In this document: positions 4,340 to 42,491 of the stretch, one piece after another
Position numbering within the stretch: the first letter of the stretch is position 1
Layout of the letters: each line of letters opens with the position of its first letter
DNA from: a virus
Taxonomy: Duplodnaviria; Caudoviricetes
Reading direction: 5' to 3' (one strand)
IMG/VR virus record: IMGVR_UViG_3300035501_001769
Coordinates: 1-64,000 of that record
Length of the DNA stretch: 64,000 nucleotides
Position numbers and translations under genes: made by a program
Notes under the pieces: generated by a model
Database searches by the model: none
The model's input: only the letters and a program-made list of their open reading frames with translations
Told to the model about the DNA's origin: nothing

Positions 4340-5130
4340 TATATCTTGAAGTGTTTACGTGATTTTTCTGCTTTGTTGAGTGTTAGAGCTTCAGCATCAG
4401 CAAACCCACCTGAGTTACGCATACGCTGAGATAGTACCTGAACAACATTGGCAGTAGCAGTAACATCGGCATCTGCATCGTGAGCGTCATCAAGGTCGAT
4501 ACTCAAATGCTCGCACATAAGCTCCAATTTGTACGAGCTGATTTCAGGCTTGTGGCAGAGAGCAAGCTGACCGAGAATAATTGTATCAAGTACGGTAGGC
4601 TGCCAGCATCCGTAGAAGTCTTTAATGCCTCTCAGCAATTTAGATGCCTGTTCGACAAGACCGGTATATTCAAGCATCTGCAAGAAGAACCCCTTATCAA
4701 ACTCAATGTTCTGTCCTATGATGAATGGTTTTGAACCTTTGCTTACTTTGGTTGACATATCACTGATAAACCGGAGTGCGCCTTCAGCTACTTTGTCTAT
4801 GTGTTCGCCTTTATCATAAAGCATTGACATTGTAATAGCTGAGTAATCTAACGCCACTTGACCGTACTCCATCAGTTGTTCACCTTGCGCTTCATCATCC
4901 CATTTGCTGCGTAATACCTTGCGTTTGGGAGTTGCACTTTTCAGCTCTTTCTTTGCATAAGGATAAACATATCGTACATATTTGCCGACAACTTCAAAAT
5001 TATCAAGTCGTACCGCGTGGATAGCAATCTGAGTAATTGCGCAAGTTTGTGGCGTTAAACCTCCTGTTTCAAAGTCAAGCACAAATGCCATCAGTGGTTG
5101 ATTATCTTGTTTTGGTGCCATAGCTATCAA
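4339..5130 (-). CDS. dnaQ: DEDDh 3'-5' exonuclease (Pol III epsilon-like)
   Basis: ExoI LDFETGG, ExoII GQNIEFD and ExoIII HDADAD motifs. Confidence 0.85.
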   Translation of the reverse strand: MIAMAPKQDNQPLMAFVLDFETGGLTPQTCAITQIAIHAVRLDNFEVVGKYVRYVYPYAKKELKSATPKRKVLRSKWDDEAQGEQLMEYGQVALDYSAITMSMLYDKGEHIDKVAEGALRFISDMSTKVSKGSKPFIIGQNIEFDKGFFLQMLEYTGLVEQASKLLRGIKDFYGCWQPTVLDTIILGQLALCHKPEISSYKLELMCEHLSIDLDDAHDADADVTATANVVQVLSQRMRNSGGFADAEALTLNKAEKSRKHFKI

Positions 5131-5644
5131 GATGTTTGATTAGGTTAGAGATGTGCGTAACAGACTCATTTAAAAACACGTTCAACTCAGCATTATTGTC
5201 GAGGACCAAATCATACGTAGCATCTGATAGGGTTACGCGGTCTTTATCTCTCGCCAAACGTTGTGTATCAACATCATTATCCGGTCGATTAACTTTGATT
5301 GCGATAATCTTATAGCGTTGTGACCAATTACAGATAAGCTCTAACAAGCCTTTTTCGTCAATCACATAAGTACATAGTCTGTACTTATCCACTTGCTCCA
5401 GTGTTGTCCAGTAATGATAACCGCCAAAACACGTATAAGCAAGACGTTCTGCCGGTTCAGGTGGCTGGGTATTCTCCGGCATAAATTTATGCTCAACTCC
5501 ATCAGTTTCACCTTCTCGCATAGGTCTGGTAGTATAGGAACATATAGCCGGGATGTTGTAGTTCTCTTGAAGGTGCAGCGATAGTGTTGTTTTACCACTA
5601 CCTGAAGCACCAACGATTGCGAGGATAATTGGTTTTGGTTTCAT
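5102..5644 (-). CDS. gmk: Guanylate kinase-like nucleotide kinase
   Basis: GASGSGKTT P-loop, SYTTRPMREGETDGVEHKF, GGYHYWT, YVIDEKG. Confidence 0.85.
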   Translation of the reverse strand: MKPKPIILAIVGASGSGKTTLSLHLQENYNIPAICSYTTRPMREGETDGVEHKFMPENTQPPEPAERLAYTCFGGYHYWTTLEQVDKYRLCTYVIDEKGLLELICNWSQRYKIIAIKVNRPDNDVDTQRLARDKDRVTLSDATYDLVLDNNAELNVFLNESVTHISNLIKHLDSYGTKTR

Positions 5645-7821
5645 TATAATATTGCTATTTGGGTTGTTTTAGTAAATGACAGTACATTGGTGTGTGTGTA
5701 GTCACTATATTTAACTACACCTGAGAAGATTATCACTTTATCTTTAGCCGTTGATAGCAAGTCCTTAAACTTAACATATTCTTCAGGCCAGATTGTACAT
5801 TCGCAGGTATCGTTATTTTGCTGAAGTACAAGCGAGCAAAACGTTTCCTCATTGCCTGTTCTACTGCTGACAAAGTGCTTTTCTTTCATGTCGGCTATTG
5901 TGGCACATACGATTGCTCTACGACCGTCATTTTCGTCATAAGCCACCTCAGCTAATGACAAATAAGATGCTTTACCGCGAAGGCGGTCTTTTATCTCGTT
6001 GGTATCATATATACGCCTGTAATCAATTGCACCAATACCTGATAATCTGATTTGTTGCTGACTCCACCAATAATGCTTGCTGATAAGGTCATCGGGGAAG
6101 TCAGATTCTTTAACCTTGAATCCTAAATCTTCAGCGGCTTTTATAACAATTGCATAACGTTCTACTACCGATTGAGCGTTCTCCACTTTGTCAAAACAAC
6201 CTGAGAGTATCATGTTGAGTACATGACGAGCGTTGACAGGACATTTAGTAGCTTCTTCTTCGTTGTCAGGGTCATCCCAATACTGATACATCTTCAGCTT
6301 GTATTTAAATACGCGCTCAATGAAGTTAGTAATGCCGGTATAAGGTCCATTCTTATCTCTTTCAGCTACAATCCATTCAACCGCTTTTAACCCCACGTGC
6401 TTAATGCCTGTGAGTGACCAAAAGATTGTATCTGTACTGAAGTCGGTATAGAATCTTGAACGGCTATAATTTATGTCGGGAGCTGCCACTTTAGCAATCG
6501 AACAGCGTTCCATCTCAGTCATGATTGCCGGTATATCATCGTCATCTGCCCACTGAAGTGCCACGGTATAGAACGCAGTTGGAAATAAAGCCTTCAGATA
6601 AGCACCTACATAAGATGTGATAGCGTATGCGGTAGCGTGTGACTTGTTAAATAGATAAGAACCACAAGCCTCAATCTGCTCCCATATCGCTTCTGCATCT
6701 GTCATTGGGCAACCATTCTCTTTTGCACCCTTCATAAACTTATCTCGCATTGACTGAATTTTCTCGGTCTTTTTCTTTGAGATGAATTTCACGAGCTTAA
6801 CACCGTCACCCAAACTAAAGCCACCAACTTGACGAGCGATGAATACGACCTGTTCCTGATATGTAATTAAGCCATAGGTGTCTTTCAGTGCATCATACGT
6901 ACCCCAAAGATATACAGGTGCTTTATAACCGTTCTTACAGGCGATATAAGAATCGGTTGAACCGTTGGTGAGCGTAGCCGGTCTGAACAATGCGTTAGCT
7001 GCAATGATGTCGGCTATACACGATGGTTTCATTTCGGTAATAAACTTAGTCATGCCGCGTGATGATAGCTGGAATACATTCTGCGTATGTCCTTCACTCA
7101 GCAATTCATAAACCTTTGGCTCATCAAGTTGGCTGGTGGCGATTGCTTCAAGCGTCAAGTTAGTACCGTAGTTAGCGTTACATAGTTCGAGAGTTTGCTG
7201 AATTTTAGACAACTCCTTAGTAGCCAAACAGTCATTCTTCAGCAACCCACATTCGTCAAGTACATAGCCATCAAACTCTGAAACCAACTGACCATCTATC
7301 TTCTTAATTGGTGTGTAGTCAAAGCACTCCATATCTTCCCCATCAAGCGTATCAGGCGTAACGAGCAATGCCGAAGCGTGAATAGAACTTGAACGAGGTT
7401 GATTGAGCAATGTTCGGATAGCTTCAAAAAGCTGAGGATATGTTTCAACGAATTTGGCTACTTTCTTATTAGTTGCAGCCAACTTGAAGATGTCAGTATA
7501 AGTTACCACATCATTGTCAAAGATGGCTGTAATGTAGTTAACAAGTGATACAGGAATACGCATTGTACGTGCCACATCCTTAATCACTGCTTTTACCTTC
7601 AGTGTCGTTAATGTACCTGCTGAGAACACACGTTGTTTGCCGTTATGGTTGTAACGTTGCTCCATATAGGCTTTAACTTCTTGGCGGCGGTCACTCTGAA
7701 AGTCGTTATCAACATCAGGGAGTGAGCCTGAATCGCCTTGCAAATATCCTTTATCAATGCGAGTATCAATCACATCGACAGGACATCTATTTTTAATTAT
7801 TGATACGTGCTTGATTTCCAT
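5644..7821 (-). CDS. dnaE: DNA polymerase III alpha, C-terminal fragment (palm, thumb, fingers, OB), with an IntC-like leader
   Basis: SLPDVDNDF catalytic Asp pair, SIHASALLVT, KNDCLA, ANALFRPA, YQEQ, FNKSHATAYA, C-terminal OB fold; no PHP domain. Confidence 0.92.
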   Translation of the reverse strand: MEIKHVSIIKNRCPVDVIDTRIDKGYLQGDSGSLPDVDNDFQSDRRQEVKAYMEQRYNHNGKQRVFSAGTLTTLKVKAVIKDVARTMRIPVSLVNYITAIFDNDVVTYTDIFKLAATNKKVAKFVETYPQLFEAIRTLLNQPRSSSIHASALLVTPDTLDGEDMECFDYTPIKKIDGQLVSEFDGYVLDECGLLKNDCLATKELSKIQQTLELCNANYGTNLTLEAIATSQLDEPKVYELLSEGHTQNVFQLSSRGMTKFITEMKPSCIADIIAANALFRPATLTNGSTDSYIACKNGYKAPVYLWGTYDALKDTYGLITYQEQVVFIARQVGGFSLGDGVKLVKFISKKKTEKIQSMRDKFMKGAKENGCPMTDAEAIWEQIEACGSYLFNKSHATAYAITSYVGAYLKALFPTAFYTVALQWADDDDIPAIMTEMERCSIAKVAAPDINYSRSRFYTDFSTDTIFWSLTGIKHVGLKAVEWIVAERDKNGPYTGITNFIERVFKYKLKMYQYWDDPDNEEEATKCPVNARHVLNMILSGCFDKVENAQSVVERYAIVIKAAEDLGFKVKESDFPDDLISKHYWWSQQQIRLSGIGAIDYRRIYDTNEIKDRLRGKASYLSLAEVAYDENDGRRAIVCATIADMKEKHFVSSRTGNEETFCSLVLQQNNDTCECTIWPEEYVKFKDLLSTAKDKVIIFSGVVKYSDYTHTNVLSFTKTTQIAIL

Positions 7822-9133
7822 TTCTCATCATGCGATATACATCGCGATTAAATACATAATTAGCGTTTCGATAAGCATCTACAAACATAAGCAGTTCTCT
7901 ATCAGCAAAGATATGTTTGGGAGAGATAAAAGCATCTGTTGAGATACCTGAGAGAGATGTGCAACGGCTTAGTGCGACATACATTTGACCGGGGGCAAAC
8001 ATTCCCTTTGTATGGATAACAATGTTGTCAAAGGTTAGACCTTGGCTCTTGTGGATTGTGATTGCCCAAGCCAATGTTACCGGATATTGGGTGCATGAGC
8101 CTTTCTCCTTTTTAACAATCTTGCCTTCACATTCGACATATTCTATATCAGTCCAAGTGTGCCGAGTAACGAAAGCCAACAAACCTGAATCAAGCCGCAC
8201 ATCCATACCGTCATCCGATAGACCAACAACTACACCAAGAGAGCCATTGTAATATTTTTTTTGGGGGTCATTAACTGTCATCATTACACGTGCGCCAAGT
8301 CTTAATGATAATTCAAGGTCGCAAGGTGCTGACATGGGGTTGAAGTCATTGGTTAAGGTCGCTGTAAATGTATGGGTTGCTTCTCCTAATAGCTTGTTGT
8401 TGATTTCTTGAACTGTTGATTTTCGCGCACATAAATGTACCGCTTTATTCTCAAAGTCATCGGCAGATTTAATACTTCTGCAACATTCTAATTCTTCAAT
8501 ATCATCATCTGTCAATTGGTATTCTCTTGTGCGGTTCAGAATGTTCACAAACTTGCTATCAGACTGGCGAAAGACTTGATTAAGTTCTACAATCTTAAAC
8601 TCCGTTTTACGCCACACCTCCGCGTGAAAAAAGTAAGAACCACGATAATAGTGCTGAAGGACCACCAATTCTTCTTTCTTAACCACAGGAGGGAGCTGGA
8701 ACAGGTCACCAATCATGACAATTTGAATACCGCCAAAAGGCTGTTCGTTGCTCAGTATTAACCTTAGCTTACGGTCGATATAATCAAGTACATCAGGGCG
8801 TACCATACTAATCTCGTCAATGATGATAGTATCAACCATCTGGAGCATTTTGATTTTGTTAGGCGATACATTTCTCTTAATCACATCATCGGGGGCGAGA
8901 ACACCGAAGGGAATTGATAATAGGCTATGAAGCGTACAACCACCGGCATTAATAGCGGCTACACCGGTAGAGGCGGCTATAACAAAGTTCTTTTTAACAG
9001 TCCTGAGAATGTGGCGAAGCAAAGTTGTTTTGCCGGTTCCTGCTTTGCCTGTAAGATAGAGATGGTCTGTGCTATATTGAATGATGTCAATAGCTTGTTG
9101 CATCTCAGGCGTTATTACGATTTCAGATTTCAT
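7793..9133 (-). CDS. Pif1/RecD-family SF1B helicase
   Basis: GKAGTGKTT, DEISMV, GDLFQLPPV, VFRQ, LAWAITIHKSQGLT, YVALSR; likely start MKSEIV at 9133. Confidence 0.9.
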   Translation of the reverse strand: MKSEIVITPEMQQAIDIIQYSTDHLYLTGKAGTGKTTLLRHILRTVKKNFVIAASTGVAAINAGGCTLHSLLSIPFGVLAPDDVIKRNVSPNKIKMLQMVDTIIIDEISMVRPDVLDYIDRKLRLILSNEQPFGGIQIVMIGDLFQLPPVVKKEELVVLQHYYRGSYFFHAEVWRKTEFKIVELNQVFRQSDSKFVNILNRTREYQLTDDDIEELECCRSIKSADDFENKAVHLCARKSTVQEINNKLLGEATHTFTATLTNDFNPMSAPCDLELSLRLGARVMMTVNDPQKKYYNGSLGVVVGLSDDGMDVRLDSGLLAFVTRHTWTDIEYVECEGKIVKKEKGSCTQYPVTLAWAITIHKSQGLTFDNIVIHTKGMFAPGQMYVALSRCTSLSGISTDAFISPKHIFADRELLMFVDAYRNANYVFNRDVYRMMRNGNQARINN

Positions 9134-10838
9134 TGATAGTGAATAATTTATCCTTATTGTCAAATAATATGTAATCACCTCGTTGTAATTCATCGGCATA
9201 AACTTCAATTGGTTCATCTTCGCCTTCACGTTTCACAACCAATTCAGCATTAACATCAAGGCTGAGAATGTGGTTATTGTCGAGAGTGACATTGACTGAT
9301 TCAATTGCTTGCTTTTTGCCACATACAACCGTTGTATTTGCCGGATATAACCCTGCGCGTTCAGGAAGTAGAAAACGTTCAAAAATCAGGTCATATTTCA
9401 TCGGATCTACAAGCGTAATGCCAAGCAGATACAGCAATAGAGAACCGGCAGCAGAGCCACGACCACAACCAACTAAGATACCGTTACGCTTACACCAGTT
9501 AACTGTGTCGTATTGTACAAGCAAGTAGTCGATATTGTCGGTGGATTCTATGATGTACTTCTCATATTCCATCTGCTTACGATACTTGTCAATCTCTGAA
9601 GCCGGAACAAGGCGTTGCAGACCATCTTCCAACAACTGATTAAACATATTGTGAGTTGTCTTATATTTTGCGGCTTCTTCTTCGGTCATGTAGTACTTAG
9701 GCATATAGTTACGAGATGTTTCCCATCTCGCCTTAGCACCATCAGCAATCACGATTGTATTAGCGCAACATTCACGGAATATGCCTAACACATCCCACTT
9801 ATCGGCATCGAATAGCTGAAGGAAATACGCATAATGCTCATCTATGTCTTTAAAGTATTGGTCCTCGGATTGTTGATGAGCAGCACCGATAGCAATCTTG
9901 TTCAGGATAATCTTGTTTCTTGCATCATCCTTGTCAAGATAGTAGCAATCGCCAATAAGCACCGGTGGCACCAAGCCTGAGTTATACACGTTATCAAAGT
10001 AGTGTTTGGTTGCTGTCAGCGTAACAATGTCAATACGTTCTGCTTTATATTCAGATAAGTCCACTTGGTATAATACGTGAATAAACTTGTCAATAAACTC
10101 AGTATCAATTAAATCCATGTGACCGCTAATCCATTCAGCAGTATTCTTGCCAAACACAAGCACGTTACCTTCAGCATAACTTAATAATTGGTCTATTGTC
10201 AACGTCTTATCATCCGGATTATCAACCATTATTGTCTTTTGGATTCTCAGCAGATTACGTAGACCTTTTTGAGTTTGCACGTACACTTTAGCTTCTACTT
10301 TGTTATCGTCATCGTCTGTAAAAACCAAACTGTAACCAAAGACAGGATTGATATTGGCTGAAGCACATTCTTTTTGCAACACAAATAAACTCGCCATCGT
10401 GTTAAGGTCACACACGCCAAGAGCTGCATGACCAAGATATTTAGCCTTAGTAACCCATTGTTTGGGCATAAAGCTACCGTTAAGTAGTTCGTAAGGCGTA
10501 TGTACACCAAGATTAACATACGGTATGTCAATCTCTGTCGACACTCGTTCACCTATGTATTTGAGGATATTGAGAGAAAACTCTGAATTGAAGTTGTGGT
10601 AATAATAATTATCTCCAAACTTGAAGATAACATAGTGAATATCTTCTGCTTCAAGCGCTTCTCTATCTTCGACAAGGTTAAACTCCATCTCACCTGTTTC
10701 GGTGGGTTTAAAAATTGATTTGATTTTGGTCATGTTCTGGTAGAACATCTTGCCGACTCCATCAATCAACACACATTCCTTATCGATTACTGCGTGTTTG
10801 ATTTTATTGTTTCGGAGCCATTCGGTTAACTTATTCAT
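9123..10838 (-). CDS. dnaE: DNA polymerase III alpha, N-terminal fragment (PHP plus start of palm), with an IntN-like tail
   Basis: HTPYELLNGS, LGVCDLN, GLRNLLRI, GCGRGSAAGSLLLYLLGIT.VDPMKYDLIFERFLLPER, then 75 extra residues and a stop. Confidence 0.92.
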   Translation of the reverse strand: MNKLTEWLRNNKIKHAVIDKECVLIDGVGKMFYQNMTKIKSIFKPTETGEMEFNLVEDREALEAEDIHYVIFKFGDNYYYHNFNSEFSLNILKYIGERVSTEIDIPYVNLGVHTPYELLNGSFMPKQWVTKAKYLGHAALGVCDLNTMASLFVLQKECASANINPVFGYSLVFTDDDDNKVEAKVYVQTQKGLRNLLRIQKTIMVDNPDDKTLTIDQLLSYAEGNVLVFGKNTAEWISGHMDLIDTEFIDKFIHVLYQVDLSEYKAERIDIVTLTATKHYFDNVYNSGLVPPVLIGDCYYLDKDDARNKIILNKIAIGAAHQQSEDQYFKDIDEHYAYFLQLFDADKWDVLGIFRECCANTIVIADGAKARWETSRNYMPKYYMTEEEAAKYKTTHNMFNQLLEDGLQRLVPASEIDKYRKQMEYEKYIIESTDNIDYLLVQYDTVNWCKRNGILVGCGRGSAAGSLLLYLLGITLVDPMKYDLIFERFLLPERAGLYPANTTVVCGKKQAIESVNVTLDNNHILSLDVNAELVVKREGEDEPIEVYADELQRGDYILFDNKDKLFTINEI

Positions 10839-11870
10839 TTACAGCGTTGTTAATTTAAATTCTGTTGGCGTTTGCAGATTTGTGCTGAAAGTGTCGTAAA
10901 TATCCCAGAAGTCCATTTCATCCCAGTCCTTACCATCGCTATCAATTTTGGCTATTAATACATCAAAATATTCTGATAGTTCTGCTGCGACACGGTTAAT
11001 TGCTTCTGTTGCATCGGAGTCATATCCAACTACAATCGTTGATACTCCTTTGGATTGTAGTTTAAAGATTTGAGCCTGAGAGATTTTCTTGCCGAAGGTT
11101 GCCACAGGTACAATTCGGTGATTATCGTAGAGGTTCAATTTTCTTGTTAAGGCGATAACATCAAAGATACCTTCACACAGAATAACTGTATCAGTTTCAT
11201 CTTCTATTACTGCATCGTAGTTGTATAACAGCTTAACATAGTCGTTTTCAGTGCTATTGTTGTAACGTCTGATTTCATACCTGCCTTTGCGCCTTGCTTC
11301 ATCATTATATTCATCAATAGTATCTTTGGTCCATTTGTGTCTGCCAATATAACCTACAATATCGCCTGAATCAATGATGGGAAATAAGACATAGTTATCG
11401 TATTTAAAATTCAGTCCTCGTGTCGTACCTACCGGAAAATAGTCATAATCATCATAAACAAAGCCACGACATTTAAGATACTTATCCTGAAAGCAGCGTT
11501 TCCATCCTTCAGGCATATTGACGATAACAAGTTCATCATCAATCTCCTCATCATTATTCAGCGAATAGAAAGACGATACTTCTAATGGTGCAATCTGTGT
11601 TGTTTCCTCAGCAATTAAATCAGGTCTACCAATATCTTTGAGCAGCTGAGGTAGTTCTTTTGTTGTGTGACCACATTTAAAGCAGTGCGACATGAATGGC
11701 TTTTTACGCCCGGTTTCAGGACCGATGTAAATGCCGAACTTTGAGCCGCCCTTACCGCAATAAGGACACTCAGGTACAAGCAGATTTTTACGACCACCAT
11801 CATAGTTGGCGTGAAGCTCAATTATCAGCTCTTGGATAATGTGTTCGCGCTCGTCTTTTGAATAATACAT
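10839..11870 (-). CDS. dnaG: DNA primase (Zn finger plus TOPRIM)
   Basis: CPYC...HCFKC zinc finger, ILCEGIFDVIAL, VVGYDSDA. Confidence 0.85.
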   Translation of the reverse strand: MYYSKDEREHIIQELIIELHANYDGGRKNLLVPECPYCGKGGSKFGIYIGPETGRKKPFMSHCFKCGHTTKELPQLLKDIGRPDLIAEETTQIAPLEVSSFYSLNNDEEIDDELVIVNMPEGWKRCFQDKYLKCRGFVYDDYDYFPVGTTRGLNFKYDNYVLFPIIDSGDIVGYIGRHKWTKDTIDEYNDEARRKGRYEIRRYNNSTENDYVKLLYNYDAVIEDETDTVILCEGIFDVIALTRKLNLYDNHRIVPVATFGKKISQAQIFKLQSKGVSTIVVGYDSDATEAINRVAAELSEYFDVLIAKIDSDGKDWDEMDFWDIYDTFSTNLQTPTEFKLTTL

Positions 11871-34237: not shown

Positions 34238-34606
34238 TTATTCTATACTATTCATAGCCTCAGAAGCAATTTCTTTAGCGTGGTTTCGCCAAGACTGTAG
34301 CTCTGCAAACTCTTGCTTATATTCTGCTTGCTTTTCCTCTGAAGCATCTGACGTACCCGAAAGTACCGCCATCATGTTATTGTTGATTGCTTCGATTTGA
34401 CTGTCGGTGTACTTCAACGTAATGATAGCTGAAACAATAGTTCCATAGCTCCAGTAGCCGGGTTCTAAAGTTACACTTTTCCAACTATACTGACCGTCAG
34501 TTTCTTCGCAATCGAAATTTATCGTATATTGTTTTCTACCCAAATCATACACAAATGTTATTGGTTCGGGTTTATTATCACCAAACATAAGCATTGTTTT
34601 CTTCAA
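34238..34606 (-). CDS. Small tail-fibre-associated hypothetical protein
   Basis: 122 aa with a C-terminal EYKQEFAELQSWRNHAK helix; overlaps the RT 3' end. Confidence 0.55.
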   Translation of the reverse strand: MKKTMLMFGDNKPEPITFVYDLGRKQYTINFDCEETDGQYSWKSVTLEPGYWSYGTIVSAIITLKYTDSQIEAINNNMMAVLSGTSDASEEKQAEYKQEFAELQSWRNHAKEIASEAMNSIE

Positions 34607-36086
34607 ACTCCTTTCTTCGCATAAATAATTTGTAATCGTAACGCTTTTGAATTTTTACAGCACCGGTATTCTTGATTAAACAGCATCGTTTTATATTCTT
34701 TACATACGGTGCGTATAACTTTTCAGCCATACTTGCAGATTTATGGTGAACTACAAAACCTATATAAGAATTAACTGAAGATGCGGTGCGCGATAATTCT
34801 TTGAGTAGTTGCAGTGTTGGAACATTTTGAGATATTACTGCACATAACTTGTTTAAGCGAAACAAAGCGTCGTGTAAACCACCAAGTGTTCGGTTAACGA
34901 GATATGTTCTGTTAGGCTTAATCACACCACCGACAAACCTACATCCATGACGAATTGTCTGCAAATACACTTTATCAGGGTGTAATGTTACGTGCAAATA
35001 GATTTTCAACCACCTTTCAGCTATCTTTCTAATACGCATAATATCGTTTTTATCACCTACTATGGTAAAATCATCCACAAAGCGTTTGTAAAGACAATTA
35101 TACCGTATGCAGAGTTTTAGCATAATAGCATCAAAAAACGACATATAAAAATTAGCGCACAACTGGCTTGTAATATTTCCTATCGCCAACCCTAAATGGC
35201 GTGGATTGTTGAGCATGGATTTATGAGCCGGAAGTTTCGCTCTATCGCTGGCAGAGAATTTTTTAATACAATTATCTGAAGGCACATGGTATATCGTTAT
35301 CTTAGTAAGATTCAACAACATATCAATATCATCACCCACATATTCTTCTTTAATAAACTTTTCGAGCAATGACCATAAAATATTTTTGTCAATACTCATG
35401 AAAAAGCCTTTCAAGTCATATTTTCCCACCCAATTTTTATGCTGTCGCTTCTTGCAGCACCATATCATATCTTTTCTAAGAGCTTGTTGGGCTGCAAATG
35501 TTCCAAATCCCTTACGGCAATTAAATGATACATTCATTTGCCTTCGAAACCGACCTTCGAACAATGGATTCAAGCGTAGACAAATCCAATGTTGCACAAG
35601 TCTATCGCGAAATGCTGCGGCAAAAATTTCTCTATAAGAAGGGAATTTAACGATAAAACAAGTGGAAGTTGATGGCACATACTCTCCATAATAGATTTCG
35701 TACACCAACTCCCACAAATTTCGCTCGTAATCAACTCTCCACTTTTCACATTCGAGGGATGAGTATTTATTACGCAAACAGTCGTTCTTTGCAATAACCC
35801 ATCCAGTTTTAATCTCCTCATCAAGTGCGACCACAGCTCGGACTCTGTTACTGTTGTACTTGTTGTTGTTGTTGTTGACGTTGCCATTACCGAAGTTAAT
35901 GTTCCATGCGTTCAACGCTGAATACTCCAAAGCCGACTCCGCGATTATGCGATTGGGTTCAATATTTGAAATAACGAGTGGACTATTTATAAGTCCACCT
36001 GTATCGCATCCATTTAATTTAAGAAGATTATTTATATCCATAACCGTAATCGTGGGTATAAAATATGCGACTATCAGCGAAGCCAA
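34578..36086 (-). CDS. DGR reverse transcriptase
   Basis: REIFAAAFRDRLVQH, YDLKGFFMSID, GLAIGNITSQLCANFYM (DGR-type SQ), RFVDDF; adjacent TR and avd. Confidence 0.95.
   Translation of the reverse strand: MASLIVAYFIPTITVMDINNLLKLNGCDTGGLINSPLVISNIEPNRIIAESALEYSALNAWNINFGNGNVNNNNNKYNSNRVRAVVALDEEIKTGWVIAKNDCLRNKYSSLECEKWRVDYERNLWELVYEIYYGEYVPSTSTCFIVKFPSYREIFAAAFRDRLVQHWICLRLNPLFEGRFRRQMNVSFNCRKGFGTFAAQQALRKDMIWCCKKRQHKNWVGKYDLKGFFMSIDKNILWSLLEKFIKEEYVGDDIDMLLNLTKITIYHVPSDNCIKKFSASDRAKLPAHKSMLNNPRHLGLAIGNITSQLCANFYMSFFDAIMLKLCIRYNCLYKRFVDDFTIVGDKNDIMRIRKIAERWLKIYLHVTLHPDKVYLQTIRHGCRFVGGVIKPNRTYLVNRTLGGLHDALFRLNKLCAVISQNVPTLQLLKELSRTASSVNSYIGFVVHHKSASMAEKLYAPYVKNIKRCCLIKNTGAVKIQKRYDYKLFMRRKEFEENNAYVW
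35826..35937 (-). repeat. DGR template repeat (TR), 112 bp
   Basis: Identical to 36564..36675 except at 8 positions, all adenines in TR on the coding strand; rich in AAC codons. Confidence 0.96.
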
Positions 36087-36466
36087 GCCATCGCTTGACC
36101 TGCCAATTGGTTTACCAAGTCCAAGAAATTAGCTTCTTGTTTAGGAGAAATTAGCGGCACTTTACCATGCTTTTTGTCAGTATATTTTACCGCTGTTAAT
36201 ACTCGCACAGAAGTTTTAATGGCAATTATACGAGCGTTAATATTCGCATAACAGTGTCTGCGCGATTGCTGATAACTTGATAAATTAGAATCTAACTCAT
36301 AAGCCATCACAATAAAGTCCAATATCTCAGCTATGTTGCTTACAAGCCGACTTCCCAATATCTGATATGGTATAGATTTGGGAAGTCTTTCCACAGCAGG
36401 AACAGACCATTGTAACAGCCTTTCAGTTAACCGATAAATCGGAGTTTGTGATGCGTGATGCCTCAT
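36074..36466 (-). CDS. avd: DGR accessory variability determinant (Avd-like four-helix bundle)
   Basis: 130 aa, basic and helical, LPKSIPYQILGSRL motif, between VR and TR. Confidence 0.8.
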   Translation of the reverse strand: MRHHASQTPIYRLTERLLQWSVPAVERLPKSIPYQILGSRLVSNIAEILDFIVMAYELDSNLSSYQQSRRHCYANINARIIAIKTSVRVLTAVKYTDKKHGKVPLISPKQEANFLDLVNQLAGQAMAWLR

Positions 36467-36525
36467 GTTTGTAAAGTTGATTCATTTCAGAATAGCAAAC
36501 ATACTATATAAGGGTTTAATCAAAT

Positions 36526-36549
36526 GCGCGACTCTGAAAGGAGTCGCGC
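36526..36549. other. DGR target-recognition hairpin/cruciform downstream of VR
   Basis: Perfect 9-bp GCGCGACTC/GAGTCGCGC stem with a TGAAAG loop, 8 nt past the target stop codon. Confidence 0.8.
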
Positions 36550-36557
36550 TAAAGGGG

Positions 36558-39500
36558 TTAAAATGCGACCACAGCTCGGACTCTGTAACTGTTGTACTTG
36601 TTGTAGTAGTAGTTGACGTTGCCATTACCGAAGTAAATGCTCCATGCGAGCAACGCTGAATACTCCAAAGCCGACCAGTAATATGTGGATGTAAGCTGGG
36701 TAAAAACACCATCACTTACTGCCTTTGCAAAGATAGCGTTCTGAGTATCTACATTGTACCCTTTTGAATGATACCAATATAATCGACCTAAGTCACCCAA
36801 ATTCGGCAAGAACCATTTGCCGGTTTTAAATAAAGGAGAAAGCGTTTCACCGGACTTAACTTTTGGTTGATAAGCATAACAAAATGACGCTGCCGGATAA
36901 TAATATTGCTGATATTTACTCGAACCTTTCTCTGTGACGATTTCTGCCATTAGAGAGTTTAAACTTTCTAATTCAGTCATCTTGTCGGTGGCACATGGTA
37001 TCTGTAGATTAACTGAACTATCACCCAAAATAGTGTTACGGTGCTTAATGATATTTAGCGTATTGCGTAATCCTTTGGGTATTACATCTCCAATCTTATA
37101 ATCACCAACCTCGGATGTGAGCGTAGTAAAGCCTATTTCAGCCACAGCAGTGTTGACATTTGGTACTTTAAAGCCATCCGCATCGCCATAATTCTCATCT
37201 CGATAGGAATCATCTGTAATATAACTTGTACCTGAGCCTTGTGAGTTATATAGACCTGTGCTTGTAATATCAACTATGGTTGGTATATTGTATACTGAAT
37301 AGCCGGGAGTGTCTGCTAATTCAATATTACGAACATTATAATTGGCATCATTACTGCTTCCTTCTGACCAACCGCTATTAAAATAAAGCCCCCAAATACT
37401 ACTTGTTGATATATCTGACAAGGCTACAGCCAAGCGTTGTGACTTATCATCCGGATTGATGTAGAAACAAATACCCACAGGGGTTTTTGCAGTATTCAAC
37501 ACATCCGAAAAAGTACCATCAGCAAACACATAATCTCCCACTTTACATTTGTGTTCGTAAAAACATATCGTTGCCGTTTTAGTGAGTTTTTCTCCGTTAA
37601 TAAGCGTTGCAACCACTGTAACTTCAGCATCGGGGTGTGTTTCTTCAGTGCCAACCTTATTTACCGTTAATTCGCCTGTCGCAGAATTGATTGTGGCATA
37701 ATTAGTTGCAGTCATGCTCCAACTAATATTGGTGAAAGTATTTGCATTAACCGTGCTGGGAGTAATACTTAATTGATATGTGCCTACTTTATCATAGTAT
37801 CGTTCAGACGCTATTGACAGCGATGTAAGATTATATGCAGTATAAGTGATATATATTGGGTTATTTACATCATCAATATTGCCGAATTTCTCAATTAGTT
37901 TCCTCTTATTTTCAAACGTGATAATTTGTGTTTTATCTGTCGAACAAGCGATTTTACCTGTCAAAGTAATATCCGGCAATTCAGCTAATTTCATCAAGTG
38001 ATTAACTGAGAAATTAGTCCAATCAACATTCTTAATTACACATTTGGTCAAACCAAAATCATCCGAATCACAAATCTCAGCAATAATGCTTTGACAGTTT
38101 AGATTTGGACAATTTGAGAACTCGAACTCTTGCATACTGCCCACGCCTTCAATAGAGAAGTTGTTTGATGTGAGAGCTTCATAATCAACCAAAGATAAGT
38201 TAGTTAATGTTGAAGGCAATTGCAACTTAGTGATAATTGAAGGTTGACCGACTTTGATAGATGTTACAGATGTGCCACCTATCAAAATTTCTTCCAATCG
38301 GGTAAGGTCTGAGAAGTCTATATTACCATTCACAGATGAAGCTCCATTGATGTCGAACACTTTAAGTAATGGAGCGGTCACAGTGATTTTAGGCGGTCGG
38401 AACTCAATAGGTTGCTGAGATGCGTGAAACTCTGTCAGTCGTTCACCTGCCACTGTAAAACCATCACCCTCAATAGGCTTGTTGCCAAATTCACCGATAG
38501 ACCTGTAATTATCAATACCACAAAGCTGAATGTTCGTGTTACCATCACTGTTTACCCCCGACAAAGTAAACGCCTCTCCGGCTTTAACTCGCTGAGGTGT
38601 CGAATAACTTTTACCGTTTGTATCACGACCATAAGCTAATGAGCTACCTGTACTGATAGCCGGGTATAACCAAATATGCGGCACGAGGTCAAATGAATAC
38701 TCAGGTTGCGCACCTGCCAAAGTAGTGATAGAACGGAATGTGAGTGAGTTAGAGCCGTTCATAGCAAAGTCACCATAAGAAGCGTATGACTGCAAATACT
38801 TCAGGCGCAACTTAACCCATTGCATTTCACATTGAAGTTGGTCGCCAAGTGATTGTGTGATAGGGTGAGTAGAACCGGTATAACCATTACCCCAAACAGC
38901 AGAAGCCGCCTCATAAGAGATACGTGCATTTTCGTTATATGCTACGGCAGGAAAATAACGCTGTGTGGAGAAGAAATACTTATCCATGCAACCAAATACC
39001 TTATCGTCATAGCTTGAATCCTTAGCCAAGTCCGCCATCTGAGCGAACATCGTGTTCATCATAGAGCGAAGTTCGGTGGGATAAGCTAATTCAATCAGGT
39101 CATACAAAGCGTTTTGTTCACCATTCCAGTATGTCGCATTGCTGCTATCAACGTCATGTTCCTCAACGTAATAAGGCTTATTCTTACGGCCTACGTTGTC
39201 GGTTGCAAAGATGGTATCTAAGTCATCTTGCGCCCAGTGAATAACGAGCTTATCGTTTTTGTATGTCAGATAAAGATAAGTATTCTTAGCGCGGTTGTCG
39301 GATGCAGCTTTCAGCTTAATAAAGTTTGAGTGGTATAGTCCATCTTCAACGTTAATATAGTCAGATGCTTGCTCTTTAAAGTCGGTAATACGTGCGTTAA
39401 CAAATTGCTCGTTAATGTTTTCCCATAAACTTCCCGAAGGATAAATGCCTGTCTGAGATGCAATGTTGAGCTTTTCATATTGACCTTCACCTTTCTTGGC

Positions 39501-42491
39501 TACACCTGCATCAACCCATTGTGATGTAAGAGTGTCATAACGATATAAGTCAAATTGGTTAGCCTCAGAAGATGCCTTTGTAACCCAATAGAATGTTTGA
39601 CGGTCTGCCTCGCTTGAAGATGCTTTCTGAAGGTCTGTCACTGTGCCAACCCAAGGACTGATATGTGTACTGTGAAGATAGAAGAAATTGAACGCTTCTT
39701 GGAAATACGAAATAGATTCAGTATTACCCATAACAACTTCCCACTGCTTTGTGCCATTATAATAAATAACATCATCAGACAGTGTAACATCATCATTCCA
39801 AGGAACGCGGTGGTTGGTTAGTGGCGTACCGTTGTCACAACCTTCCAACATCAAATATTCAGGGAACACATTCTTATCATATCCGAAAGTAGGTTTATCA
39901 CCCTTGCCCGGACCAAATGTGTATAAGCCGTAAAATGTAGGTTCATCGCTCTCGGCTGAACGTGTAAAAACAAGGAAAGGTTTCTGAACGACCGTAACAC
40001 GACAATCTTCAAATCCTTCAGTGTTTGTGATATAAGAACCGCCTGTACACTTCTTCCATAGGTCTGTATAGAGATTAACACAACCCATTTTGTGAGATTG
40101 CATAGATGATGCCCAGTTACGTTTTGCAACGTTCTTAACGGAGTAGGGAACACCATCCATAAGCTGATATGCCGCGCCTCTGTTTACGCCATTCTCATCA
40201 AGCCAATAAGTAGCTGAGGTATTAGCAAATTGGAAGTTCCACATCCAGTATGAACGTGATGACGTACCTTGACCGGTGGTTTTAACCTGATAAAGCGTTC
40301 CTGAGTGTGAAGGGTCATCAATTATATGAATTTGAACATCATTAGTATATGCAACATTACCGGTTGAGTAAGAAGGAACTGTGCCGGTAATCACCATCGT
40401 GTTATATTTGTCGTATGCCTTTGTATAGCTAATAGTGTTGTCATCACCTAAGATGGCATTAGCCTCACGATATTCAAGTTTCTCGGCAACGGTAGACATT
40501 GCCGCCATGCAATCTTGTCGTATATCATTAGCTGATAAAGATTTACGATAGACACGCAAACTATAAATATCAATATCCGAAGTATCGTTGCCAATGCGAA
40601 TACCCATAGAGGTCTGCTTACCGTTTACATATTGCACGAACTTATCTGTCGTGGTCCACATAAACTCACGGTTAATAGTACCGTTGATGAACAAGCGCAC
40701 ATAGTTACATGACGTGTTGTTGATACCGTAAATGATATTAACAGCCAAGTGGGTACGCACACCTTCTTGCCATGCTACATCTTGGTCATCATGCACACGG
40801 TTGTTTTGTGTCATGAAGCAACCATCAGTCGGGTTCATCTCAAAACCAAGCGGCAGAGAGTCGTTCATGTAAGAACACATACGCAAGATAGCTGCATCCA
40901 TATCAGTTACATTTCGTGTTGCAAAATCCAACTCGATAGTAACTGAATTACGCATATCGGTAATAAAGTCCTGATATGGCTCGTAGTCAATCGTAAGAGA
41001 ACGACCGGCAAGCACTCTTAAACAGCGGTTGCCATCTTCATCAGTTACCCAACCGTCAGTTTTGAATTTAAAGCCGGACCAAGTGGAGCTAACAGTTGAA
41101 TTATCAGCAGTATTGATAATTGTAGCCGGGTTGGTTTCATCATTGGTGCGTAGACGAGGATTGAGAACAAAGTCAGCTCCCGAAGTAGGTGAAAAGTTGT
41201 CTTGATTGTCAACCTGAAGGTCGATCATCGTGCGGATCTCCGATTCACCCGAATAGAAATGCAAGTAAGCATCTACGGTGGTGTCATCGCTGTCAATTTC
41301 TACGAAGTTTGTCAGCTCATATTTGGTGCTGTTCGCTACGTTGCCAAGGTCGAGCTGCATATACTGTTCAGTGCCTTTGTAGTTGCTTAATAGAATACTA
41401 AAAGGTGTTGTTTCGGCATTGGGGTTATAGATAGAGTAGCTGAACAATGTCTGAGATGTCCAGTTGGTCGGCGTTTTATTGACATCGTTTAGAAGCAAGT
41501 AAACGGTTTTATCCGTCTTATCAGTAATCACCAAAACTTCAGTAGTAACAACATCACTAACGACATCAGAATCGTCTACTGTAAGCCACGCTTTAATCGT
41601 GTGAATACCCTGAGTGACAACCTTATTCTTGTCGGCAGATGTGTCTGTTACTTCAACCTGTCGGGGAGATTCAGTGTAGACAGCTGTACCAAGTGAATAG
41701 GCGTATGTTCGCGCTCCATCATCAATACTGATATTCAGCGTTTTCTTGATTGCACCTGTAATGTAGTAGCTGAGGAAAATCGTACCTGTATCAAAAGGCT
41801 TTTCCCATTGAGTTGCCGCTGTAAGTTTGAGCGTTGTTTTGGTTACGTTAAACTGAAGATAGCGTGTGCTTAACTCAGTAGTGTCGCCCTTAACAATGAT
41901 ACGAACTTGCTGTGTGCCTGTACTCAACATATTCGTAATATCCACCTCAGTCCACGAAGATGAATCAGCAGCCAAAGAAGATACAGCCACCGTACCCTTA
42001 GTTGCCCATGTAGCTGTTGATGAGCTACGTGTTTGCACGGTCAAAGTACCACCTTCAGTTGTGTCTTGTGTTGATTGCGTGATGGGGTTGTACTCTTGCG
42101 AGGTAAATCGGATATTGATTTTAACCGTATTATCAGTGGTTACAATATCGCTTGATGAATCTCGGTAAAGGTTAACGATATAGCTGACAGCCGATGAACC
42201 GCTACCTGTATCGGGCAAGGCTACATCACTTAAAAGCAAATCAGCATACGTGTCTTGGTCGCTGTTCCATTCGAGATAATCTGATTCTGAAGCAAAACCG
42301 TAGATGTGGTAGTTGTTATCACTACCTTTCTCGTCAGACCGTTTAAAATAAGCCGGTTTTTTGGCGAGAGCTTCCTGCGTATCAGCTTCAATTTGCTCAA
42401 ACTGGGATATGATGAAGGCTTGAATTTGTGAGCCTGTAAATCCATCCCAGTTCGTTTCCCTATCCGGAATCTGCGAATTGGTTGTTGCCAT
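36558..42491 (-). CDS. DGR target: 1977-aa virion adhesin with LRR-like and Ig-like regions and a C-terminal C-type-lectin fold
   Basis: VR at the extreme C-terminus (YYWSALEYSALLAWSIYFGNGNVNYYYNKYNSYRVRAVVAF); WFLPNLGDL CLec motif; Ig-like WSMTATNYATINSATGELTV. Confidence 0.85.
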   Translation of the reverse strand: MATTNSQIPDRETNWDGFTGSQIQAFIISQFEQIEADTQEALAKKPAYFKRSDEKGSDNNYHIYGFASESDYLEWNSDQDTYADLLLSDVALPDTGSGSSAVSYIVNLYRDSSSDIVTTDNTVKINIRFTSQEYNPITQSTQDTTEGGTLTVQTRSSSTATWATKGTVAVSSLAADSSSWTEVDITNMLSTGTQQVRIIVKGDTTELSTRYLQFNVTKTTLKLTAATQWEKPFDTGTIFLSYYITGAIKKTLNISIDDGARTYAYSLGTAVYTESPRQVEVTDTSADKNKVVTQGIHTIKAWLTVDDSDVVSDVVTTEVLVITDKTDKTVYLLLNDVNKTPTNWTSQTLFSYSIYNPNAETTPFSILLSNYKGTEQYMQLDLGNVANSTKYELTNFVEIDSDDTTVDAYLHFYSGESEIRTMIDLQVDNQDNFSPTSGADFVLNPRLRTNDETNPATIINTADNSTVSSTWSGFKFKTDGWVTDEDGNRCLRVLAGRSLTIDYEPYQDFITDMRNSVTIELDFATRNVTDMDAAILRMCSYMNDSLPLGFEMNPTDGCFMTQNNRVHDDQDVAWQEGVRTHLAVNIIYGINNTSCNYVRLFINGTINREFMWTTTDKFVQYVNGKQTSMGIRIGNDTSDIDIYSLRVYRKSLSANDIRQDCMAAMSTVAEKLEYREANAILGDDNTISYTKAYDKYNTMVITGTVPSYSTGNVAYTNDVQIHIIDDPSHSGTLYQVKTTGQGTSSRSYWMWNFQFANTSATYWLDENGVNRGAAYQLMDGVPYSVKNVAKRNWASSMQSHKMGCVNLYTDLWKKCTGGSYITNTEGFEDCRVTVVQKPFLVFTRSAESDEPTFYGLYTFGPGKGDKPTFGYDKNVFPEYLMLEGCDNGTPLTNHRVPWNDDVTLSDDVIYYNGTKQWEVVMGNTESISYFQEAFNFFYLHSTHISPWVGTVTDLQKASSSEADRQTFYWVTKASSEANQFDLYRYDTLTSQWVDAGVAKKGEGQYEKLNIASQTGIYPSGSLWENINEQFVNARITDFKEQASDYINVEDGLYHSNFIKLKAASDNRAKNTYLYLTYKNDKLVIHWAQDDLDTIFATDNVGRKNKPYYVEEHDVDSSNATYWNGEQNALYDLIELAYPTELRSMMNTMFAQMADLAKDSSYDDKVFGCMDKYFFSTQRYFPAVAYNENARISYEAASAVWGNGYTGSTHPITQSLGDQLQCEMQWVKLRLKYLQSYASYGDFAMNGSNSLTFRSITTLAGAQPEYSFDLVPHIWLYPAISTGSSLAYGRDTNGKSYSTPQRVKAGEAFTLSGVNSDGNTNIQLCGIDNYRSIGEFGNKPIEGDGFTVAGERLTEFHASQQPIEFRPPKITVTAPLLKVFDINGASSVNGNIDFSDLTRLEEILIGGTSVTSIKVGQPSIITKLQLPSTLTNLSLVDYEALTSNNFSIEGVGSMQEFEFSNCPNLNCQSIIAEICDSDDFGLTKCVIKNVDWTNFSVNHLMKLAELPDITLTGKIACSTDKTQIITFENKRKLIEKFGNIDDVNNPIYITYTAYNLTSLSIASERYYDKVGTYQLSITPSTVNANTFTNISWSMTATNYATINSATGELTVNKVGTEETHPDAEVTVVATLINGEKLTKTATICFYEHKCKVGDYVFADGTFSDVLNTAKTPVGICFYINPDDKSQRLAVALSDISTSSIWGLYFNSGWSEGSSNDANYNVRNIELADTPGYSVYNIPTIVDITSTGLYNSQGSGTSYITDDSYRDENYGDADGFKVPNVNTAVAEIGFTTLTSEVGDYKIGDVIPKGLRNTLNIIKHRNTILGDSSVNLQIPCATDKMTELESLNSLMAEIVTEKGSSKYQQYYYPAASFCYAYQPKVKSGETLSPLFKTGKWFLPNLGDLGRLYWYHSKGYNVDTQNAIFAKAVSDGVFTQLTSTYYWSALEYSALLAWSIYFGNGNVNYYYNKYNSYRVRAVVAF
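36564..36675 (-). repeat. DGR variable repeat (VR), 112 bp
   Basis: AAC>CTC, AAC>AGC and five AAC>TAC changes relative to TR. Confidence 0.96.

Follow-up and report, generated by a model that had tools for sequence, protein, structure and literature searches.

A splicing-dead split mini-intein as a putative non-covalent assembly module of a two-chain phage DnaE polymerase

The stretch of DNA analysed here, referred to as the window, comprises 64,000 nt (positions 1 to 64,000) of IMG/VR record IMGVR_UViG_3300035501_001769, a 72 kb gut virus of the Caudoviricetes, of the Bacteroides phage type, that is classed as a provirus and is around 65% complete. It contains a replicative polymerase gene of the DnaE type (dnaE) that is broken into two open reading frames (ORFs) with a third gene between them. 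All three lie on the minus strand, tightly packed and each in a different frame. The first, dnaE-N (9123..10838; 571 amino acids (aa) plus the stop codon; PHROG 405/13169, DNA polymerase), encodes the PHP domain, the first part of the palm with its GRGS motif (9453-9464), the sequence FERFLLPERAG (9351-9383) and then, directly after it, a C-terminal tail of 75 aa (9126..9350). The last, dnaE-C (5644..7821; 725 aa plus the stop codon; PHROG 405/12219), begins with a leader of 32 aa (7726..7821), which is directly followed by the catalytic sequence SLPDVDNDF (7699-7725), the remainder of the palm, the fingers (Pfam DNA_pol3_finger), a helix-hairpin-helix (HhH) domain matching HHH_6 and an OB domain with a weak match. 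The 1.3 kb between the polymerase halves is filled by a gene for a Pif1/Dda-like superfamily 1 helicase (7793..9133; 446 aa from the ATG at 9133; Pfam PIF1, E = 4.9e-34; PHROG 325, Dda-like helicase, E = 3.9e-85), the ATG of which sits 11 nt inside the end of dnaE-N; the ATG of dnaE-C is in turn found 29 nt inside the end of the helicase gene. The initial annotation, which a model had made from the sequence by itself, had placed both polymerase genes, the tail and the leader at exactly these coordinates, but did not mention the helicase gene that lies between the halves and overlaps both.

A single Pfam DNA_pol3_alpha domain is divided between the two genes, with profile positions 3-99 matched in dnaE-N and 93-260 in dnaE-C; hence the GRGS motif and the DxD aspartates are on different chains, as had been claimed from the motifs. 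Across both chains the set expected of a DnaE-type C-family polymerase is complete, with PHP, GRGS palm, catalytic aspartates, FNKSH fingers, HhH and OB all present. The sequence FNKSHATAYA (6622-6651), which corresponds to the cyanobacterial split region, is uninterrupted in dnaE-C, in agreement with the earlier view that this fracture arose independently of the cyanobacterial one. The phage break instead falls one loop ahead of the catalytic DxD strand, a place where inteins are typically inserted. The tail and leader are, we think, probably the two fragments of a splicing-dead split mini-intein that has been kept as a putative non-covalent assembly module of DnaE.

Both fragments resemble parts of a Hint domain. 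The tail, an IntN-like candidate, contains a block-A-like NTTVV, has DVNA in place of TxxH at the block B position and carries a net charge of -8. The leader, its IntC-like counterpart, has a basic N-terminal strand followed by a block-F-like VDVIDTRID, and ends in GDSG in place of HN. Against Pfam Intein_splicing, the window tail scored E = 0.0026 and 18.0 bits, relative to a curated cut-off of 35.8 bits. The same profile was matched by 34 of 42 homologous tails at E <= 1, the best at 5.4e-5, and the Hint profile by four of them, and a six-frame scan of the whole record found this place as the sole match, with E = 2.7e-5. When a profile of the tails was compared with PDB sequences, eight weak matches were obtained (E = 0.3-2), five of which are Hint proteins, among them the TFIIB intein, the Pab PolII (PolC) intein and hedgehog. 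Judged on sequence, the Hint-like resemblance exceeds chance; the signal is consistent but weak.

The arrangement is conserved. The same three genes are present at 99-100% identity on two independent IMG/VR contigs (L007 and L008), and the same tail and leader, at 57-66% identity, in more than 50 further IMG/VR loci. A length-restricted protein search listed 120 clusters of around 570 aa, every one of which spanned the tail fully. BS-TP1, an isolated Bacteroides phage with a genome of 111.7 kb that was cultured on Bacteroides salyersiae, has the window's order of dnaE-N, Dda-like helicase and dnaE-C, and MT835494 has a tail and leader homologous to those of the window. Misassembly, named with the initial annotation as a possible refutation, is excluded as the cause of the break by the near-identical contigs, the numerous relatives and the isolate genome. 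In the marine Cbastvirus, dnaE is broken at the same place but the two genes are directly adjacent, with no gene in the gap (L002, 5857-9457; L003, 5812-9392; Cellulophaga phages phi13:1 and phiST and Tenacibaculum phage Larrie), and the pieces have been shortened together to 51 and 17 aa; these halves have been annotated merely as two 'DNA polymerase III alpha subunit' genes. Tail and leader always co-occur in the relatives. An uninterrupted junction is found in the DnaE of Chryseobacterium phage MA9V-3, which reads FERFLNEGRVGK followed directly by SLPDIDND; the insert can hence be defined as everything between R-x-G and S/T-L-P-D. DAC22 likewise has the uninterrupted form.

By contrast with the constant tail and leader, the content of the gap differs among loci, which indicates that the helicase gene is a later lodger outside the mechanism. 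A helicase is found in most loci. It is absent from L066 and from Cbastvirus, and in four others (L049, L050, L052 and L060) the gap is empty and the two dnaE ORFs overlap. The gap of MT835494 holds a methyltransferase gene and one for an endonuclease with NUMOD4 and HNH_3 domains; an HNH endonuclease gene follows the helicase gene in five IMG/VR loci, and a NUMOD4 and HNH_3 endonuclease is encoded in the gap of L005, L010, L047, L057, L058 and L062, whereas the gap in the window holds the helicase gene only. At L037 (6707-7095), around 390 extra bases separate the end of dnaE-N from the helicase gene.

Codon-level comparison of moderately diverged pairs put the median ratio of nonsynonymous to synonymous substitution rates (dN/dS) of the tail at 0.10 (20 pairs) and that of the leader at 0.09 (five pairs), compared with 0.04 and 0.02 for the polymerase core adjacent to each. 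Values of around 0.1 indicate that the extra residues are functional protein rather than read-through. The motifs DxDA and YADEL, FDNKD and DCFVDSGY of the tail and leader are nearly invariant. Neither a polymerase of family A or B nor a second DnaE was found in the record, in four relatives that are 92-97% complete or in the complete BS-TP1 genome; taken with the very low dN/dS of the core, this implies that the two-chain enzyme works. Natural split inteins show a pattern of acidic N-fragments and basic C-fragments. The tails here have a median charge of -12 (-8 in the window), and the first 16 residues of the leaders one of +3 (+1 in the window).

The most informative relative is P0146 (L066, 7-3165; 1052 aa), which was located by a search among longer proteins. 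It is a natural DnaE whose single chain unites tail and leader, reading LLFCMGYNTGVLRISNVK, with no helicase between them; its source is a 4.3 kb JGI contig that carries the same downstream kinase-like gene. This fused form could be the ancestral arrangement in cis, could have arisen by secondary fusion or could reflect an indel artefact. The P0146 insert, together with 45 and 60 flanking residues (L066:622-1320), was modelled with AlphaFold2 from a multiple sequence alignment in which the split tails and leaders entered as partial rows anchored by the extein. The insert was predicted with a pLDDT (predicted local distance difference test) of 90-97 to be all beta with one short helix, and the extein stubs, deprived of their context, were modelled poorly. 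A Foldseek search of the PDB with this model returned inteins, hedgehog or BIL Hint domains as every one of the best 50 matches listed, with E values down to 2e-4 and a probability of 1.00. VIA-align, which is independent of Foldseek, was run against 48,161 chains, and the top 22 rows were all Hint-fold entries, with Z scores of 4.2-7.4. The Hint assignment from these searches rests on the uniformity of the match lists rather than the size of the scores. The initial annotation's reading of tail and leader as Hint-like fragments thus finds support both in the modelled fold of the fused homologue and in the profile matches of the tails.

In the fused model the break point corresponds to a loop (residues 127-131) between the short helix and the terminal long beta-hairpin, around 70% of the way through the domain, and the segment equivalent to the leader forms that terminal hairpin. 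The loop before the terminal long hairpin is also where split inteins are broken and endonuclease domains are inserted. The fold is carried over to the window, as a model-based assignment, through the 49-57% identity to the fused relative. Modelled alone with AlphaFold2, the window tail had a mean pLDDT of 61, with the first 26 residues disordered and the rest of moderate confidence, and eight of its top ten Foldseek matches were Hint proteins, none of them significant; such a poor model is as expected of a fragment that needs its partner. A tail-only phmmer search of 1.84 billion representatives found no internal tail-like insert in a full-length DnaE, and no ancestor, its 20 matches being 19 at the C-terminal ends of short or split proteins and one multi-stretch match in a protein of 2830 aa.

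The residues needed for splicing are missing from both fragments. Position 1 of the insert, after ERAG, is Leu in the window, as is the residue after AG in 59 of 61 tails. In place of TxxH the window has DVNA and the relatives D-x-D-A, with the D and A at least 90% conserved; the hidden Markov model alignment sets TRSH of the TFIIB intein opposite D-x-D-A of the tails. The residue preceding S/T-L-P-D is Gly in 39 of 39 leaders, that of the window ending in DSG, so that there is no Asn, Gln or Asp for cyclisation; to our knowledge, none of the three known splicing classes operates without a cyclising terminal residue. The initial annotation had noted that the position-1 nucleophile, the TxxH His and the terminal His-Asn are absent, and this extends from the window to some 40-60 relatives. 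The fused insert of P0146 carries the same dead residues, which means that the domain must stay in that mature enzyme. The insert does end, as first described, just before a Ser: this +1 residue is Ser33 of dnaE-C in the window, Ser in at least 90% of the relatives, Thr in Cbastvirus, Gln in L019 and L066 and Ala in L039. Since the same Ser is present in the uninterrupted DnaE of the Chryseobacterium phage, it is native and not diagnostic. We infer, from residues absent across some 40-60 relatives, that the halves form no covalent product.

Other features appear to be relics of an active ancestor, namely DTTII, which resembles block A, VLDCFVD, which resembles block F, and, in 15 of 39 leaders, a His in the penultimate position, giving HG where inteins have HN; these point to descent from a once-active intein. 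Two cysteines were considered as remnants of a splice junction and rejected. That of MT835494 (PERCG), a candidate for the intein Cys1, lies in a column that varies (V/M/A) in both contiguous and split relatives and precedes the insert boundary; that of the window tail (VVCGKK) is Gly in nearly all relatives.

That active inteins do invade this polymerase lineage is evident from locus L038, whose dnaE-C contains an in-frame canonical intein of 281 aa (9204-10046) between FNK and SH. Cys1, TANH and a terminal Asn ahead of Ser are present in it, as is an HNH domain (Intein_splicing, E = 1.4e-8; HNH, E = 2.7e-7), and its site adjoins, but is not identical to, the cyanobacterial split site. An hhalign comparison of the concatenated tail and leader profile with this intein gave a non-significant E of 0.13, with TANH paired to D-x-D-A in a register that matches that of the PDB alignment.

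At eight further loci (L005, 9380-9520; L010, 3100-3900; L017, 7950-8240; L040, 7930-8160; L047, 7930-8670; L057, 7940-8680; L058, 7960-8700; L062, 7990-8710) the leader itself is followed by an interruption. Its ORF ends in GSLP and a stop codon, and DnaE-C resumes 7 nt (five loci) or 8 nt (three loci) later, in different frames. The gap always ends in NCG directly 5' of the Asp codon (GAT), and the last sense codon is always CCG, where in-frame loci mostly have CCT. Just before this CCG ends a perfect GC-rich hairpin of 10 bp, with a folding energy of -20 to -27 kcal/mol in the seven of the eight loci that were folded; it exists in three sequence versions that differ by compensatory changes. 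The in-frame loci have a median of -9 kcal/mol and the window, which is without the element, -5.9 kcal/mol. An HNH endonuclease gene (NUMOD4 and HNH_3) lies directly upstream in six of the eight loci and in none of the in-frame ones. The arrangement looks like a homing endonuclease paired with a short recoding element, by analogy with the gap associated with mobA and gene 60 of phage T4, and at either gap length a CCG-to-NCG hop would rejoin GSLP and DVD exactly. The T4 system consists of mobA and the 50 nt bypass cassette of gene 60 (bioRxiv 10.1101/2022.08.31.505936). It shares with the eight relatives, though not with the window, a short untranslated gap, a stop after the last sense codon, a split replication gene and a conserved hairpin, along with an HNH gene in six of the eight; the relatives differ in having a gap of 7-8 nt rather than 50, a hairpin 5' of the take-off site, and a putative CCG take-off and NCG landing.

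The mechanism that we propose runs as follows. The only replicative polymerase of the phage, a DnaE-type DNA polymerase III alpha subunit, would be made as two polypeptides broken one loop before the catalytic DxD strand, with the broken ends formed by a trimmed Hint domain: DnaE-N would carry the acidic N-fragment of 75 aa and DnaE-C the C-fragment of 32 aa, the two being separated at the usual position for split inteins and endonuclease insertions. The two would fold on each other as the halves of a split intein do and halt at the non-covalent complex, association without splicing being suggested by the loss of all the splicing residues. The resulting stable clamp would unite the two parts of the palm, and the Hint domain would remain as a permanent appendage of the active enzyme. 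By analogy we infer mutual binding of the fragments and a dependence of activity on the clamp. Historically, an intein, with or beside a homing endonuclease, may have invaded dnaE, been split and lost catalysis whilst retaining association, and the helicase gene may have settled in the gap later. We lean, if only moderately, towards the fullest version of this account, in which the dead split intein would be an obligate non-covalent heterodimerisation module of an essential polymerase in a lineage of gut Bacteroides phages with genomes of around 100 kb, reduced in the marine Cbastvirus, at a junction that would still be a battleground of mobile elements and may in places have acquired a new type of short-gap bypass, from CCG to NCG.

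Several observations weigh against an intein-derived clamp. Every Pfam match to Intein_splicing or Hint lies under the curated cut-off, and the fold scores are modest, with template modelling (TM) scores normalised by target of 0.29-0.42 except in one listed row and all Z scores below 8. What was modelled as Hint with high confidence is a relative sharing 49-57% identity over the folded segment (insert and flanking extein), not the window's own chains, and P0146 itself rests on one metagenome contig of 4.3 kb, in which the fusion could be an indel artefact. At 107 aa the domain is smaller than known mini-inteins, and the Cbastvirus version (68 aa) cannot make up a complete Hint fold. In the leader, the invariant Asp19 is always followed by a potential nucleophile (column 20 of the leader alignment; 7753-7773 in the window): at least 90% of aligned leaders have Cys there, the window and L038 have Thr, and P0146 and MT835494 have Ser. 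This leaves a small door for some other chemistry. Finally, the leader ORF is cut off from DnaE-C by a stop codon and a change of frame in the eight gap loci. If no recoding takes place there, the leader is not tethered to DnaE-C and the idea of an obligate clamp is weakened; the leader may in that event be a separate peptide of 35 aa and DnaE-C re-initiated, making a three-piece polymerase.

The alternative that fares best, although we regard it as unlikely, is that the Hint remnant has been kept for another role and that the pieces of the palm join via an interface of their own. That role might be contact with another replisome protein, for instance the adjacent helicase or a clamp, regulation of assembly, or higher-order oligomerisation as in the tails of the NrdA protein of Aeromonas phage Aeh1. 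Those tails are reported to be essential for activity but not for formation of the heterodimer (PMC3045599). The near invariance of DxDA, YADEL, FDNKD and DCFVDSGY seems to exceed the needs of a passive zipper, the fused P0146 retains the domain without need of one, and in the eight gap loci the leader is possibly untethered. On the other hand, no partner for such a role has been identified; tail and leader are always found together, and shrink jointly in Cbastvirus, the break is at the canonical position of split inteins, and the charge pattern fits association of the fragments with each other.

A far less probable alternative is that the pair is an atypical active split intein, which trans-splices DnaE without Cys1/Ser1, TxxH or a terminal Asn, for instance by means of a class-3-like block F nucleophile after the leader Asp. 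Class 3 inteins also have no position-1 nucleophile, and they occur in phages. The fold and split position match those of split inteins, the +1 Ser is present in the window and most relatives, and the residue after Asp19 could act as a nucleophile throughout the leaders. However, with Gly at the end of all 39 leaders there is nothing to cyclise, the block B His and Thr have been replaced by Ala and Asp, and some intact relatives have Gln or Ala at +1. In a comparison in which the block F register was assigned by eye, the class 3 WCT signature was not found: in the window the putative block F site is Thr instead of Cys, the block B position of the class 3 Trp is Leu, and there is no block G Thr and no terminal Asn.

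It is scarcely credible that the extra residues are functionless by-products of a mobile insertion, through intron-like read-through, or that dnaE is a decaying pseudogene in a phage that uses the host polymerase: the helicase ORF with its flanks of around 217 and 67 nt is roughly the size of an ORF-bearing group I intron and the three ORFs do lie in three different frames, but Rfam gave only three chance-level matches and no intron or credible RNA family in 5000-11500 at E <= 10, the tail and leader form a folded protein domain on which purifying selection acts, more than 50 loci and a propagating isolate have both halves intact, and no other polymerase is encoded.

The splicing-dead assembly module proposed here has its nearest architectural precedent in the fractured genes, phage-like genes in which a split intein marks the break and a free-standing homing endonuclease gene separates the parts, and which include three metagenomic DnaE loci (Dassa et al. 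2009, PMC2677866). They share with the window an essential replication gene in two adjacent ORFs, the N- and C-fragments of a Hint domain at the broken ends and a gene between, and the six relatives with a NUMOD4 and HNH_3 endonuclease listed above have an HNH endonuclease in this gap as well. They differ in that their inteins keep Cys1, Thr, His, Asn and a +1 Cys (PMC2677866) and are expected to splice, where only the +1 Ser is present here, and in that the intervening gene of the window encodes a Pif1/Dda helicase and not an endonuclease. Whilst the Hint reading of the initial annotation has held, it overlooked both this kinship and the relic features. The split DnaE intein of cyanobacteria (Ssp/Npu) likewise makes DnaE as two chains that meet via Hint fragments, with an acidic N-fragment and a short basic C-fragment. 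Its site, between Y and CFNKSH, is intact in the window, as set out above, and is the one beside which the L038 intein sits; its halves are at separate loci and trans-splice, whereas the window genes are neighbours and their domain is shorter (75 and 32 aa) and chemically dead.

The closest functional precedent is the NrdA of Aeromonas phage Aeh1, which mobE splits and whose parts assemble through tails that the insertion gave rise to (Crona et al. 2011, PMC3045599). There, too, the active site of a phage enzyme is fragmented by a mobile element and function is restored without RNA or protein splicing via interaction tails. The Aeh1 tails are described as unique sequences that came from the mobE insertion and not as Hint domains, whereas those of the window would be the halves of one ancient domain, and tails of the window type are widespread in gut Bacteroides phages and marine Cbastvirus. 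In domesticated Hint domains, such as the C-terminal domain of hedgehog, BIL domains and the yeast HO endonuclease, the Hint fold has been kept for some purpose other than mobile protein splicing; the fold matches of the fused model include structures of hedgehog and BIL domains. Domesticated Hint domains of this kind consist of one chain, and most of them still carry out an acyl shift or cleavage. The domain in the window differs in being split over two polypeptides and in having neither a nucleophile nor the catalytic His and Asn. In the literature we found no description of a natural dead split intein used as an assembly module, which is not proof that there is none.

Split inteins are known as splicing machines, and we know of only one case, Aeh1 NrdA, of a fragmented phage enzyme held together by tails. 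A dead split Hint domain under selection as the clasp of a two-chain polymerase would, if true, link the two. It would also define an evolutionary exit for inteins, through domestication as an assembly domain instead of loss, and explain how an essential gene broken at its active site survives. For protein engineers, the pair would be a natural, small (75 and 32 aa), non-splicing and probably orthogonal heterodimerisation module. Natural controls exist in the uninterrupted, fused, minimal and active-intein forms, and the cultured BS-TP1 shares the arrangement.

The split dnaE lies within a replication module that includes genes for a DnaB-like helicase, a Toprim primase, a DEDDh exonuclease, a kinase-like protein, SbcCD, NrdD and a methyltransferase; a megablast search with the region against phage records gave no match. 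Elsewhere in the window (34578-42491), a reverse transcriptase gene (RVT_1, E = 1.4e-10) adjoins one for a protein of 1977 aa with a C-terminal match to Lcl_C of 25.4 bits, which is under the curated cut-off; the pairing fits a diversity-generating retroelement.

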